Shown in pieces: positions 4,305 through 10,910 of a stretch of DNA of 32,000 nucleotides. Both the position numbers and the translations under genes were made by a program. The stretch comes from an uncultured Gammaproteobacteria bacterium. GTDB lineage: Bacteria; Pseudomonadota; Gammaproteobacteria; Chromatiales; Chromatiaceae. The DNA is taken from positions 1,538,463 through 1,570,462 of the forward strand of contig CAVZIJ010000003.1 in the NCBI GenBank assembly GCA_963775335.1. The letters run 5' to 3'. Below the pieces are notes generated by a model. That model worked only from the letters and a program-made list of their open reading frames with translations, had not been told where the DNA came from and did not search any database. Within the stretch, counting starts at the first letter, position 1. Each line of letters begins with the position of its first letter.

Positions 4305-4823
4305 CTACATCCGAACCTTCAGATCCGTTCCGAACCGGACACCGACGATCTGGCAGGCAACACGTAGAAGATCCAGCTTCTTATCGTTGCTCTCGTTGGT
4401 GCCAACATACCACCCAGGCGTGAAGACTTCGGTGAATTTCCACAGCTTCGGTTTCCCAGGATAGACAGCCTCGACAGTGCGAGCGACATAGGGACGTTTT
4501 CGGCCTAGGGCCTTGACGGTTCGACTGTACCGCTCCGGAAACTCCGGAACCAACTCAGCGAAATGCCGGAGGATCGAAACCAGCACCTCGTTGCCGTTTC
4601 GCGCCGAGAATCGCTGACCCCATAGCTCGTAGCCAGTCTCGACCTCCACCGGCAAACATAAGACGGTTGTGGTTCGCGGCGACGGTTGGCCTTCGAGCGC
4701 GCGCTCCATCTTGCCCAGTGTCCGGTTAAACTCGGCCACTTGGGCCCGCAGACTCCGGACCCTTTCTAACATGTCAGTGGCTTTCGGCCCTGGGTTAGTT
4801 TGCATGTGAATATCCTCAGTCAT
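4305..4823 (-). CDS. hypothetical 172-aa protein, third gene of the XRE/DUF4258 operon
   Basis: The start ATG overlaps the stop of the upstream gene (ATGA at 4823-4820). The sequence is protein-like (..YELWGQRFSARNGNEVLVSILRHFAELVPEFPERY..GWYVGTNESNDKKLDLLRVACQIVGVRFGTDLKV). I cannot name a family with confidence. Confidence 0.6.
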   Translation of the reverse strand: MTEDIHMQTNPGPKATDMLERVRSLRAQVAEFNRTLGKMERALEGQPSPRTTTVLCLPVEVETGYELWGQRFSARNGNEVLVSILRHFAELVPEFPERYSRTVKALGRKRPYVARTVEAVYPGKPKLWKFTEVFTPGWYVGTNESNDKKLDLLRVACQIVGVRFGTDLKVRM

Positions 4824-5152
4824 GGATCGAGGTTGTCGGGGAGGTCCCCGTCGGCTCTGATAGCTGGGTGGCGATGCAAGCCTCTTAGAAGACGCTTCTC
4901 AGTCCTGCGTGAAGGGCGGTAGACGGTGACTACGGTCTCGCCGGCAATTACAATGCGGCAGCCGCGCAGTCGCTCCAGTGCAGTGATCTCCCGCTTTCGG
5001 CGACGGATTTCGCGGTCAACATCCCGCGCCAGCAGGAACAAACTGTCATCATCGACTGGCGTTCCAGCAGCGACAATGATCGGAATATCGGATCTGCGGA
5101 TGCCGCGTTGCTGGGCTCTGGCCTCCGCATGTCCGCTCAAAGGGGGGTTCAT
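4820..5152 (-). CDS. DUF4258-like small toxin-type protein (110 aa)
   Basis: The N-terminal LSGHAEARAQQRGIRRSDI matches the H-A-x-x-R-x-x-x-R-G-I motif I associate with DUF4258. It has ATGA stop/start overlaps with both neighbours (5152-5149 and 4823-4820). Confidence 0.55.
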   Translation of the reverse strand: MNPPLSGHAEARAQQRGIRRSDIPIIVAAGTPVDDDSLFLLARDVDREIRRRKREITALERLRGCRIVIAGETVVTVYRPSRRTEKRLLRGLHRHPAIRADGDLPDNLDP

Positions 5153-6123
5153 GACTGATCCTCCTCATTGGCGTTGTCGCCGTCAGAGTTGGCGTCTGCA
5201 GGACTGTCCTGGTCGAAGATGAGGCGTGCAAGCTCAGAAAATCGTCGTTGGTGTTCCTCCTTGGTCGCCGCTTGTTGCTCTACCAGCCATTTCCGGTAGT
5301 CTTCCTCGGTGGCTCCTTCTTTCTTCTCCCAGGCCTGCGAGAGGGCGATGTCACCATCTCGAATCAATTCGAGAACCGGCCGATCCGCTTGATCGCCGGC
5401 GTCGAGTCCGACCGACTGAGCGATGATCTCGATGGGCATGGCGTAATCCGGAGCACACAGATAGTTGGGGACAAACTCCATTGGGTGCCCTTTAAACAGG
5501 CCAAGCGCCTTCAACTCCTTTTCGAGGAAAACGACGAAGGGCGACATCTCCTCTCCACCATAGTCACCGTAGTGCTCGTAGACCTCGCGTTTCTTGAGCG
5601 ACTGTTGCTCCGCGTTGATCCATTCGTCGTCGTCGCGGTAGCGAAAGTCGCCTGGCAGATAGGGCAAGCGCCGGCGGGCGTCGGCAGTAGCGTCCTGCAG
5701 CGCCTGCAAGGTCTCGTCCAGCGCCATCTGCCTGGCTTGTAGGCTGCGTTCAGCCAGGATCAAAAAGGCCAGTGGCGCCAAGTCGATAATGTCCTTTTCG
5801 CGCAAGCCAAAGTACCGTTGCACGAACGTCAGCGCCGTCCGGGCCGATCTTGAGATGCCCTCCTTCAAAGCGACGCGATCATGCAACTTGTGGAACTCTT
5901 TGGAATCGTGAGGGCGTGTGAGCCGCTCCCATTTGACATGGAGTGCGTCGCATAACCCCTTCCGGGTATTTTCACGAATGCGCGAAGTCTGCTGGCCGCG
6001 TTCGTACCGGCTGATCTGGGCTTTGCTGACCTTGCCCTTGCTCTCTTCGGCGAGCCTTTGTTGGGACCAGCCTTGCTTTTTGCGGTAGTGCTTCAGGGCC
6101 TCGGGGTTCAGAGTGGCGGTCAT
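5149..6123 (-). CDS. XRE-family helix-turn-helix protein with a ~250-aa uncharacterised, acidic-tailed C-terminal region
   Basis: Preferred start is the ATG at 6123, with caGGAGacgcgcc upstream. The track ORF begins 15 codons earlier. KHYRKKQGWSQQRLAEESKGKVSKAQISRYERGQ is a classical XRE HTH. The C-terminus has no motif I recognise and ends in a D/E-rich tail. Confidence 0.75.
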   Translation of the reverse strand: MTATLNPEALKHYRKKQGWSQQRLAEESKGKVSKAQISRYERGQQTSRIRENTRKGLCDALHVKWERLTRPHDSKEFHKLHDRVALKEGISRSARTALTFVQRYFGLREKDIIDLAPLAFLILAERSLQARQMALDETLQALQDATADARRRLPYLPGDFRYRDDDEWINAEQQSLKKREVYEHYGDYGGEEMSPFVVFLEKELKALGLFKGHPMEFVPNYLCAPDYAMPIEIIAQSVGLDAGDQADRPVLELIRDGDIALSQAWEKKEGATEEDYRKWLVEQQAATKEEHQRRFSELARLIFDQDSPADANSDGDNANEEDQS

Positions 6124-6154
6124 GGCGCGTCTCCTGCTTGGCGTCGTTATGGAA

Positions 6155-6183
6155 AGAATAGGCGCCAAGAAAGGCTATAGCAA
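6155..6183 (-). promoter_or_regulatory. candidate sigma70 promoter for the XRE operon
   Basis: The minus strand reads TTGCTA (6183-6178), a 17-nt spacer, then TATTCT (6160-6155), about 30 nt upstream of the ATG at 6123. This is a pattern match only. Confidence 0.25.
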
Positions 6184-7094
6184 TGAGCGTTTCATGATCT
6201 CTTGGCCGTTAAAGGTGTACAGCGAGCCTGTTTAACGCATCGTTTTCACGCCTGAAACGATGCTCTGCCGAACCGGCCCAACGCTGTCGCGGCGGCAAAA
6301 CCGAGTAAACGACGCGTAAACACGTCGTTTCGAGGTTGCGGACCACGCGGGACAGAACAACCGGACGGCTTCGCCACCCGTTCCTTAAGGTTGAAACGTG
6401 CGCTCTGACCCGATTGCAGGCGCTCCAGCTCGGGCGGCTGAGGTCCGTTCTGGGTCGAACTCGGTCATCCGGGGTGGAGATCGTGCGATGAGGCAGGGAT
6501 GAGGCGACGCCCCCCGAAGGGGCGACGCAGGGTCGGAGCTCCCAGCCGGGCACCGCAGCACCCTCCTGGCGCGAGACCCAAAGAGCACGGTACAGCGCAA
6601 CCGTGGGGTGGTATGTCGGATGGCGCTAAAGTCTGTGTAGGATTCGGCCCACACACGCCGCCGGCGACCCCTGTGACCGCCTACGACCCCCGTAGAGTTG
6701 CGATCCGTGGGCGAAGGCCCCAACAAAAAGGTCGTTCGACCGGCCTCGCCGTTCGCCACGAAGGCCCAGGCGCCGCTCGCCATGTCCCAGGCGGGACCTG
6801 ACGCCCGATGGGCTCATCTCCTGGGCCGCCAAGAAAACATGGGAACTGCAGGCTAGTGGCGGGCGGGTGTACGAGCCCAGGACCCAGACGGTGGAGGACT
6901 TCGCCGAGGAGTTGCCGCAGGCAATCCCGGGGGGCACAGACGCCGAGAAAAAGCGGTTATTCCCCGGCCGCAGCACGACGACAGGAAGGTCGTCGTGTAC
7001 TTGGAGGGGCATCCTCCGATGGAGCTTGCGGAGGCCACGAAACGGAGCTTGCTGTGATCGAGTGAGGCTGATGGACAAGGAGGTCCATCAACAG

Positions 7095-9393: not shown

Positions 9394-10221
9394 TCATGAG
9401 AAGACCTCTCGGAAGGGCCCCAGAAAGCGCCTCCCAGGTGACCAGTCCGTGATCGCAAACGCAACGTCCGAGAAAAACCCCGAGAACGGGCCTTCAAGGG
9501 CGTGGCGAAAGTCTTGCGCTGTTCGGATAGGATCGTTCTCGAAAGCACCGCAGCCCCACGCTCCGAGGACAATCGCGTCATGACGGAACGAGCGAGCGAC
9601 TTCCAGAACGCGGTGGATGCGCCTTTCTAGGAGATCGCCGGCCCTCGGCTGCCCTATCCTTGGCGCGTACGGAGCCGCGCAAGTTATGAAGCTGAGAAGC
9701 CAAGGCCGGTCCAGGGGGGTCCCATCGTCGAGTCGAAAGACCGGCACGTCCGGCGAATAGATAACCCAATCGGTTGAATCGGGAAGAGGGCGCCCCCTGT
9801 GCTGGTCATACATGGGATCTCCGACCAATGTTCTCCACAAGGCGCTCGATCGGCACAGCACCTCCTCCTGGGCCCTGGCTCCATTGAGGAAGCCTCCTCC
9901 GGGGTGAACCCCATTGGCAAAGTTCAGTGCCACGGGGCGCAGTCCTTTCTCCACCAGGCGCCGCCCGGCTTGGAGGGTTGTCTCGTTGGAAACCTGAACC
10001 CGAGTAATGGGCGTAACGACTTGCTTCCCGGGGCTCAAAGGGATGCCCGGCGGAACACTCTTCTTCGCCGCGTGGGCGTTGCTAACCTCGGCACTCCAGT
10101 CCACCCGCCTGGCAGCACTGTCTAGGTAATAGCCGATGTCGGTGGCCTCGACTGCCGATCTGCCCATTTCTGCGGCCCTGTACCGCTTAATGTCCAGTTC
10201 CTGGCGCCGAGAGGTCGCCAT
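9394..10221 (-). CDS. bacterial-type poly(ADP-ribose) glycohydrolase-like macrodomain protein (TIGR02452/DUF2263 type)
   Basis: LNFANGVHPGGGFLNGARAQEEVLCRSS carries the GGG-X8-QEE PARG signature, and AWGCGAFENDP lies near the C-terminus. The preferred start is the ATG at 10221 (276 aa). The track ORF extends to 10407, but that extension looks non-homologous. Confidence 0.8.
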   Translation of the reverse strand: MATSRRQELDIKRYRAAEMGRSAVEATDIGYYLDSAARRVDWSAEVSNAHAAKKSVPPGIPLSPGKQVVTPITRVQVSNETTLQAGRRLVEKGLRPVALNFANGVHPGGGFLNGARAQEEVLCRSSALWRTLVGDPMYDQHRGRPLPDSTDWVIYSPDVPVFRLDDGTPLDRPWLLSFITCAAPYAPRIGQPRAGDLLERRIHRVLEVARSFRHDAIVLGAWGCGAFENDPIRTAQDFRHALEGPFSGFFSDVAFAITDWSPGRRFLGPFREVFS

Positions 10222-10910
10222 GTCCTCGGAGTCCAGGCAGGCAAGCAGTGTTAGTCTCGTCCTTTGGTCTTGCACGGCGCCCTCCCGCCCCCAGTCTCGC
10301 ACCCAGGAGTAGCGCGTCTGGGAGACCGAGTCAACGTCCTCCCACTCCCACTCGGTTCGGTCGGGCCAGCCCCCCCGATGACCTGGTTTTGCGACCCCCC
10401 CTTCCAAGCTCTCATGAGTTCTCCGAGTGGCTTCCCAGAGTGGTGCGACGAGCGTGAACCCCTTCGCGCCAGCTCATCTGCCCCGTCGCGCAGCCTGAGA
10501 GGCGCGCAGAGGCGCGATCTGCCCGAGGCGGCATCTGGGGGCGGGGCGAATCTCCCTGGGTCTCGCCGCGGGGTTCGCCTGGCACTCCAAGCGGTACGCC
10601 CAGAGCCGCGAAGACCGGGCGCGGTACGCTGTTGCCGATGATGGGGCGCCGGCAAAGAAGCCCGCCCTGTGGAGCCACCCGGACCCCGTGCCGCCGTGGG
10701 ATAGGAGGCGTCGCCAGTCCCCGCGGGATGACGGAGATCGGCCAGAACCGGACATCCTGGCATGACCGAAACCGTGGTACGTTGTGCATTCCGCTGAACC
10801 CTGCCACCCATTCCACGTGAAAGCTGCCACCCAGACCACGTGAAGCCTGCCACCCATTCCGGGGCAAGGCGGCCACCTGTCGGAGCGAAGCGACGCGGGG
10901 TATGGCATTG

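Follow-up and report, generated by a model that had tools for sequence, protein, structure and literature searches.

The operon and its three proteins

The window analysed here is a stretch of 32,000 nucleotides (nt) from an uncultured member of the Chromatiaceae (Gammaproteobacteria; GenBank assembly GCA_963775335.1, contig CAVZIJ010000003.1, positions 1,538,463 to 1,570,462), the minus strand of which carries three co-directional open reading frames (ORFs) between positions 4305 and 6123, referred to in this order as g1, g2 and g3 (Table 1). The first encodes an XRE-family helix-turn-helix (HTH) protein with a large C-terminal domain that matches no family, the second a small basic protein akin to the DUF4258/Ntox49 family of predicted toxins, and the third a protein with a predicted DNA-binding domain of the type found at the C-terminus of SeqA (SeqA-C).

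Table 1. Coordinates of the features discussed in the text (window positions unless another locus is given; aa, amino acids)
Feature	Location	Strand	Description	Basis
g1	5149-6123	-	324-aa XRE-family HTH protein with helical C-terminal domain and acidic tail	ORF
g1 HTH domain	5935-6096	-	residues 10-63	Pfam HTH_3/HTH_31, PDB profile matches, Foldseek
g1 C-terminal helical domain	5206-5868	-	residues ~86-306	no family or fold match
g2	4820-5152	-	110-aa basic DUF4258/Ntox49-like protein, predicted BECR-fold RNase toxin	ORF
g3	4305-4823	-	172-aa ORF; likely start 4805 (166 aa)	
g3 N-terminal long helix	4692-4787	-	residues 13-44; candidate dimerisation or partner-binding element	AlphaFold2
g3 SeqA-C-like DNA-binding domain	4308-4640	-	residues 62-172 (predicted)	Foldseek, profiles, Pfam
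g1 promoter and ribosome-binding site (RBS) region	6124-6200	-	AACGACGCC box adjoining the RBS, AGGAG before the ATG	
Perfect 9-nt inverted repeat	6237-6263	.	GCATCGTTT-N9-AAACGATGC; candidate operator	
Palindrome	6307-6330	.	AAACGACGCGT-NN-ACACGTCGTTT; candidate operator, or terminator of a decayed upstream gene	
SeqA-C-like domain fusions	L011 286-909; L012 1450-2376	-; -	proteins P0178, P0182, P0204, P0230, P0239, P0260	
Weak PF02086 match	own genome L064, C3 2529975-2533130		within a 697-aa open frame	
PARG genes	window 9394-10407; L001 1885-2757; L021 2190-3131; L047 2026-2904	- (window)		

The start of g1 is the ATG at position 6123, with AGGAG 7 nt upstream, and relatives of the protein share the N-terminus MT(D/E)TLNP. 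The first two genes form an adjacent, co-directional and tightly coupled pair, the layout expected of a type II toxin-antitoxin (TA) system: their frames overlap by ATGA, the overlap of 4 nt is kept in relatives, and the Shine-Dalgarno sequence of g2 (GAGGAGGA) lies within the 3' end of g1, 7 nt ahead of the g2 ATG. The first-pass annotation had joined all three genes by such overlaps, and both of them do exist (5152-5149 and 4823-4820), but the second is probably not the start in use, because g3 most likely begins at its second ATG (position 4805). This codon has GAGGA 7 nt ahead of it, coincides with the position at which most g3 relatives start, agrees with the database gene call of 166 aa, and leaves a gap of 14 nt between g2 and g3.

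Upstream of the operon, the ~60 nt before the g1 ATG are conserved among loci of the XRE type, and the upstream regions of 18 related loci have in common a block of the form ...GGCGTCTATTCTTT...AACGACGTTAGACAGGAGACGCGCCATG, of which the window has its own copy. Both inverted repeats listed in Table 1 contain the half-site AAACGAYG, which occurs eight times in the window (2.3 expected), four of these within the 93 bp from 6238 to 6330. The palindrome at the far end of this interval also scores as terminator-like on the minus strand.

The DUF4258 assignment originally given to g2 on the strength of its N-terminal motif stands for the family, while the window copy alone stays below the Pfam cut-off. 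The motif is present as HAxxRxxQRGI, with H8, R12, Q15, R16 and G17 invariant in the aligned relatives, and DUF4258 (PF14076) is matched by 28 of 28 aligned relatives (best E 3.8e-7); the window protein itself scores 20.1 bits against a cut-off of 25 (E 7.8e-4) and aligns over residues 5-37 only. Relatives number 117 at 46-89% identity, some of them with precomputed PF14076 matches and some named 'DUF4258 domain-containing protein' by NCBI. For Ntox49 a signature of 'H, [KR]' has been given (Zhang et al. 2012, PMC3482391), with which the invariant H8 and R12 agree, and DUF4258 has been placed (PMC11980606; bioRxiv 10.64898/2026.08.28.747851) among the ribonuclease (RNase) toxins of the BECR superfamily (Barnase, EndoU, ColicinE5/D and RelE) (PMC11980606; PMC3482391). 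The protein is very basic, with an isoelectric point (pI) of 10.9, and is predicted to be a divergent DUF4258/Ntox49 protein and RNase-type toxin. A search of the PDB with the g2 family profile found no solved relative by sequence, and its matches to ribosomal protein L6 (E 0.3) were set aside as noise. Having the regulator before the toxin had been thought unusual; antitoxin-then-toxin is in fact the order listed for DUF4258 (Gerdes 2025, PMC11980606).

For g1, the earlier description as a textbook XRE HTH followed by ~250 unassigned residues and an acidic tail is upheld. HTH_3 (PF01381) is matched at 35.3 bits (cut-off 23; E 1.2e-8), profile matches in the PDB comprise C.BclI, HipB, P22 C2 and SinR, and Foldseek gives template-modelling (TM) scores of 0.6-0.9 to XRE HTH domains (SinR, C.AhdI, C.BclI). 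The residues beyond the HTH have no match in Pfam, NCBIfam, PADLOC or PHROGs. In an AlphaFold2 model built with 21 relatives (predicted local distance difference test score, pLDDT, 79) they form a mostly helical domain (~86-306) and then a disordered acidic tail, and in Foldseek searches of the PDB and BFVD with the whole model only the HTH was matched and the ~220-aa C-terminal domain was not. The domain includes a conserved block, DLAPLAFLILAERSL; the C-terminal part as a whole is acidic (net charge -11.7, pI 5.0), and the tail proper (residues 290-324) has a pI of 4.1. There are 35 relatives at 45-59% identity.

Gene g3, which had been left without a recognisable motif, carries a SeqA-C-like domain that is predicted to bind DNA. 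The AlphaFold2 model (pLDDT 84, above 90 in the domain) has a long helix (13-44) that a disordered linker separates from a compact alpha/beta domain (62-172). The five best Foldseek matches of this domain in the PDB are all SeqA-C (1IU3, two chains of 3FMT, 1LRR and 3SK7; probability 0.96-1.00, target-normalised TM score 0.48-0.64, root-mean-square deviation 2.0-2.9 Å, 85-95 columns), and the sixth match has a probability of only 0.2. By sequence, the window protein scores 14.9 bits against the SeqA model PF03925 (E 0.029; below the gathering score of 25.5), 16 of 21 relatives match that model (best E 1.2e-5), and a domain profile that includes distant relatives matches Vibrio cholerae SeqA over nearly the whole domain (E 1.3e-3). 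Although identity to SeqA is 12-16%, the motifs GR(K/T)R.Y and W.(V/I).TN align between the two, GRKRPY and TNESN of g3 falling on GRTRVY and TNTNT of SeqA; hhalign against one SeqA aligned the correct motifs at a probability of 12%. Matches of the domain profile to TAL effectors (E 1e-10) were rejected as an artefact, being the sum of many insignificant repeat matches.

The N-terminal part of g3 alone gives coiled-coil-type matches in the PDB, and with its helix, linker and SeqA-C-like domain the protein appears to follow the plan of SeqA, in which a linker connects a self-association element to a DNA-binding domain. The protein is basic (pI 9.6-9.8) and has 25 close relatives. It is nonetheless not a SeqA orthologue, since Pfam finds no match to the SeqA N-terminal oligomerisation domain (the single helix stands in its place), the match to the SeqA model is below the cut-off, the gene belongs to a mobile cassette, and the genome is without SeqA.

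A full-library profile search found the g3 domain in 1389 representative clusters at E ≤ 0.001 (717 at E ≤ 1e-10). Most members are g3-like proteins of 160-190 aa, and longer ones have HSDR_N or Mrr_N preceding one to five copies of the domain. SeqA and RAMA have been listed as readers of N6-methyladenine (m6A) in DNA within restriction-modification architectures (Iyer et al. 2016, PMC4738411), and the fusions fit a role of the g3 domain as a DNA-reading module in restriction-type enzymes. The set given in Table 1 comprises fusions of SeqA-C-like domains with HSDR_N, Mrr_N or restriction-endonuclease-like N-termini, and these reader-nuclease fusions look like a family that is apparently unnamed.

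Relatives, partner exchange and mobility

A census of 52 unique g2 sequences from genomes, metagenomes, viral contigs and assemblies, with neighbouring genes scored with profiles, demonstrates both a prevailing gene trio and exchange of its members (L numbers denote individual loci). Upstream of g2, 38 observable loci have an XRE protein (25), a CI-repressor-like HTH protein (5), a RAMA/DUF4357 protein (2) or no partner (6); downstream, 49 observable loci have a SeqA-like protein (31), a second family, A4 (8), or no partner (10). Four of the six loci without an upstream partner belong to a distant paralogue group and one is a scoring artefact; in the last, L056, the upstream partner is missing, A4 is kept, and g2 is truncated at its N-terminus with loss of the H/R motif. 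L060 was scored as lacking a downstream partner, but when the threshold is relaxed a divergent SeqA-like gene is recognised there, and the two TGA codons seemingly present in g2 of L073 came from a match that had run beyond the stop codon of an intact gene.

The combination of XRE, g2 and SeqA-like genes is the dominant pattern (19 fully observed unique relatives) as well as the deepest, being kept at 43-51% g2 identity (Rhodobacterales, Burkholderiaceae, viral contigs), and the co-occurrence of the three genes on which the first-pass proposal of a tripartite module depended is thereby borne out. The trio was found in Chromatiaceae, Rhodobacterales, Burkholderiaceae, two IMG/VR viral contigs (L089, L090) and one phage-like contig. 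In all five contigs that could be tested, a g2-like gene lies directly upstream of a distant stand-alone g3 relative. One cultured isolate and 24 contigs have an intact g2 together with a CI-type partner, without a trace of g3, and the L007 locus of Lamprocystis purpurea is of this composition. A comparison of the families by hhalign found no C-terminal domain common to XRE-type g1 and the CI-type upstream partner. In the g2 tree the window copy groups, with weak support, with copies from XRE plus A4, CI plus A4, RAMA plus A4 and CI plus SeqA-like loci; exchange has therefore taken place on either side of a conserved g2, which, judged by these sequence comparisons, is the constant core of the cassette.

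Two of the alternative partners were characterised further. The RAMA/DUF4357/DUF2924-like upstream partner (L032 279-692, L045 755-1195) is a predicted m6A-DNA reader of 137-146 aa whose gene lies ~50-60 nt from g2 with no overlap. The A4 variant (L014, L028, L030, L043, L045; e.g., L045 1595-2164 and 2213-2959) is a sister form of the cassette, in which A4, a family of 185-189 aa with an N-terminal helix and a C-terminal LVCTHSSTIDKKK motif, is always followed by the gene of a 248-aa NUDIX protein. A4 is not claimed to be SeqA-like (hhalign of the g3 family with A4 gave a probability of 6% over the C-terminal 51 columns). An extra unknown gene of 168 aa follows g2 in L030 and L032.

More distant g2 homologs occur outside the cassette. 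The genome of the window has a second DUF4258-like paralogue of 102 aa that matches the g2 profile at E 5.9e-15 (L066 1477-1785 (+), that is, own-genome contig C3 1073007-1073315), with an IS66-type transposase gene directly upstream and a protein of >478 aa without a Pfam match starting 33 nt downstream, and solitary paralogues akin to it are present in L074-L076. At L077 (32-304), the public gene call is a minus-strand gene of 90 aa; a g2-like ORF on the plus strand (44-358; E 1e-30) overlaps it, and the call is probably a mistake that hides the g2-g3 pair.

Within the window's order, a g2 relative is present in 10 of 201 genomes and 7 of 61 genera. The 18-kb phage-like contig carries all three genes (L085 1223-3031), which overlap and encode 332, 96 and 176 aa, between a tape-measure gene and a tail-tube gene, a location typical of morons. 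No g2 relative was found in the collections of cultured phages and plasmids. In the window itself the operon sits in a defence or mobile island together with an integrase pseudogene, a nucleotidyltransferase paired with DUF262, genes for HNH and PARG proteins, and insertion sequence remnants. Three other independent loci (L001, L021, L047) have, on the strand of the module and 390-860 bp upstream of it, a PARG gene with 63% identity to that of the window; the gene preceding PARG in L001 and L047 encodes a 1028-aa ARPP-vWA-PARG protein, ARPP being a component of predicted ADP-ribose conflict systems (PMC9503650). An HNH gene, a membrane-protein gene and ~900 bp of decayed sequence separate PARG from g1 in the window. 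The proximity of PARG may be an arrangement that recurs in such islands, or it may mean that the module is functionally linked to ADP-ribose systems.

Possible modes of action

The reading put forward here, tentatively and with a probability of roughly 0.45, is that the cassette is a horizontally mobile, three-component TA-like conflict module in which g2 would be the effector, g1 would repress its own operon and probably neutralise g2, and g3 would read DNA. The toxic activity would be that of an RNase of the predicted BECR fold. The g1 protein, translated just ahead of g2, would exert the repression through its XRE HTH, probably at the palindromes with the AAACGAYG half-site and at the conserved box next to the RBS, and its large helical domain and tail, both acidic, would probably serve to neutralise g2. 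The g3 protein would bind DNA and tie the module to the state of DNA methylation or replication, be it as a co-regulator or as a sensor by which the toxin is licensed, and the whole might serve against phages. A neutralising role of g1 is favoured by the coupled antitoxin-then-toxin order, by the complementary charges of basic g2 and the acidic C-terminal part of g1, by loci of the L007 type, in which a g1-type partner accompanies an intact g2 with no g3, and by L056, where g2 has lost its H/R motif and the upstream partner has gone as well. For g3 as a reader speak the SeqA-C fold, the fusion of its domain to HSDR_N or Mrr_N in larger proteins, the listing of both SeqA and RAMA as m6A readers (PMC4738411) and the replacement of g1 by RAMA in some loci. 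The reading as a whole draws further on the enriched palindromes and conserved promoter block upstream of g1, on the co-inheritance of the trio and on its carriage by islands and viral contigs.

Several observations weigh against this reading. The DUF4258 family is without any experimentally characterised member (PMC11980606), and the g2 of the window remains below the Pfam cut-off with just the stretch around its motif aligned. Among the named anti-phage systems of PADLOC-DB v2 no component was recognised, as g2 and g3 are unmatched and g1 is matched only via its HTH (RmrA, CapH); g2 and g3 also lack matches in NCBIfam and PHROGs. With regard to methylation, no SeqA was found in the host genome, the only Dam-type (PF02086) match there, at 26 bits over model positions 13-64, is weak, and counts of GATC over the operon and upstream regions give no clear enrichment or conservation. 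Additionally, three unrelated upstream families are swapped among closely related g2 copies, which is awkward if the upstream partner must bind g2 specifically, and the g2 copies without a downstream partner form long branches, so that g3 could be the partner that matters.

A more specific form of the sensing role is considered unlikely: g3 would read the methylation or replication state of DNA (e.g., un- or hemi-methylated phage DNA, or a lost mark), its helix would release or activate the DUF4258 RNase, and abortive infection would result; an epigenetic state would thus be sensed, and the logic of type IV restriction joined to an effector that cuts RNA, with SeqA-like and RAMA domains as interchangeable sensors.

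Partner swapping and the long branches of g2 copies without g3, together with the very tight linkage of g2 and g3, favour g3 as the neutraliser. If so, g2 and g3 would be the true TA pair, ordered toxin-then-antitoxin like MqsR/MqsA, the g3 helix would bind g2, the SeqA-like domain would replace an HTH, and g1 would be a separate, exchangeable regulator like PaaR2 or omega. The linkage is seen in the 39 of 49 observable relatives with a SeqA-like or A4 protein after g2 (to which L060 is added at the relaxed threshold) and in the g2-like gene that precedes all five distant g3 relatives; the exchange of XRE, CI-like and RAMA partners among closely related g2 agrees with this pairing, and DUF4258-MqsA fusions in the order toxin-antitoxin are known (PMC11980606). 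This arrangement is nevertheless improbable, given the cultured isolate and 24 contigs in which intact g2 persists with a CI-type partner and without g3, the truncation of g2 in L056 despite the retained A4, the basic character that g3 shares with g2, and a link between the XRE partner and g2 that is as ancient as that of g3.

Doubtful to a greater degree is a two-subunit, modification-reading nuclease following the logic of type IV restriction, in which g3 would recognise how invading DNA is methylated or modified, g2 would be brought in as the cutting subunit, and g1 would serve expression control only. The repeated fusion of the g3 domain to PD-(D/E)xK-type (HSDR_N) and Mrr_N N-termini, of which a separate partner could be the split version, speaks for such an enzyme, as do the presence in the same cassettes of RAMA, a predicted m6A reader linked to restriction enzymes, and the HNH, DUF262 and PARG genes beside the module. 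The BECR-fold toxins described so far, however, are RNases and not DNases (PMC11980606; PMC3482391; bioRxiv 10.64898/2026.08.28.747851), some loci have g2 without g3, and the tight coupling and complementary charges of g1 and g2 resemble neutralisation more than regulation.

Very unlikely is a non-conflict lifestyle or maintenance module of a mobile element, with g1 as repressor, and with g2 (non-toxic) and g3 as small proteins that bind nucleic acids and control replication, lysogeny or segregation (g3 sequestering new DNA as SeqA does at oriC), for although CI-repressor-like and XRE partners, carriage by viral contigs and a place among phage tail genes, and the known role of SeqA in sequestering newly replicated DNA (PMC4738411) accord with it, the toxin-family H/R signature is invariant in g2, a protein under strong conservation (60-89% identity across hosts), the cassette is transferred as a small unit that lacks replication and integration genes and occurs in unrelated contexts, and the tail-gene location in L085 is the place of a moron and not of a lysogeny switch.

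Relation to known systems and significance

Measured against the DUF4258/Ntox49 TA modules (PMC11980606; PMC3482391), the cassette shares the small basic protein with an N-terminal HAxxRxxxRG motif, the toxin gene following and translationally coupled to that of a DNA-binding partner, and a mobile, sporadic distribution. It departs from them in that the window copy is a sub-threshold match with only its N-terminal third aligned to the model, in that the partner is an HTH protein of 324 aa with a domain of no known family and not an antitoxin of ~100 aa (MqsA, HicB, DUF2283), and in having a conserved third gene. That third protein resembles SeqA of E. coli and Vibrio (PF03925; 1LRR, 1IU3, 3FMT, 3SK7) in C-terminal fold, motifs and overall plan; it differs in its low identity, in the single long helix that takes the place of the N-terminal domain, and in its location in a mobile cassette of a host without SeqA, not in a seqA-pgm locus.

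Established three-component systems (paaR2-paaA2-parE2, omega-epsilon-zeta, and the toxin-antitoxin-chaperone (TAC) arrangement of HigB, HigA and a SecB-like chaperone) likewise unite a toxin, a neutraliser and a third, regulating or assisting protein in one operon on mobile DNA, roles that are predicted for the present cassette. Their families are unrelated to those described here, however, and their third component is an HTH or ribbon-helix-helix regulator or a chaperone and not a SeqA-like protein. If g2 and g3 are taken as the pair, MqsR/MqsA and the DUF4258-MqsA fusions offer the closest parallel, a toxin and, after it, a protein of two parts, of which the N-terminal one binds the toxin and the C-terminal one binds DNA, but the DNA-binding domain of g3 is SeqA-like and not an HTH, a zinc-binding domain is lacking, and an extra HTH protein is encoded upstream. 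Type IV restriction systems (Mrr and the SRA, RAMA and HARE-HTH fusions; PMC4738411) are comparable in that the g3 domain family is elsewhere fused to HSDR_N or Mrr_N and RAMA occurs in sister cassettes, whereas here the reader stands alone and the effector has a predicted RNase-type fold, not a PD-(D/E)xK or HNH one.

In the literature searched, neither a DUF4258 module whose third gene is SeqA-like nor the C-terminal domain of g1 is described, and the cassette looks like a variant of TA or defence cassettes in which the reader component is unusual. For DUF4258, a large toxin family without experimental data, the cassette offers a compact and well-conserved test case, and the ~220-aa domain held by g1 is without a known relative. 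The cassette also connects a predicted RNase toxin with a large unnamed family of SeqA-like domains, part of which is fused to domains of restriction nucleases. If the SeqA-like protein were a sensor, the module would represent a new coupling of DNA methylation state to a toxin, and even if it is not, g3 takes the SeqA fold well outside replication control.

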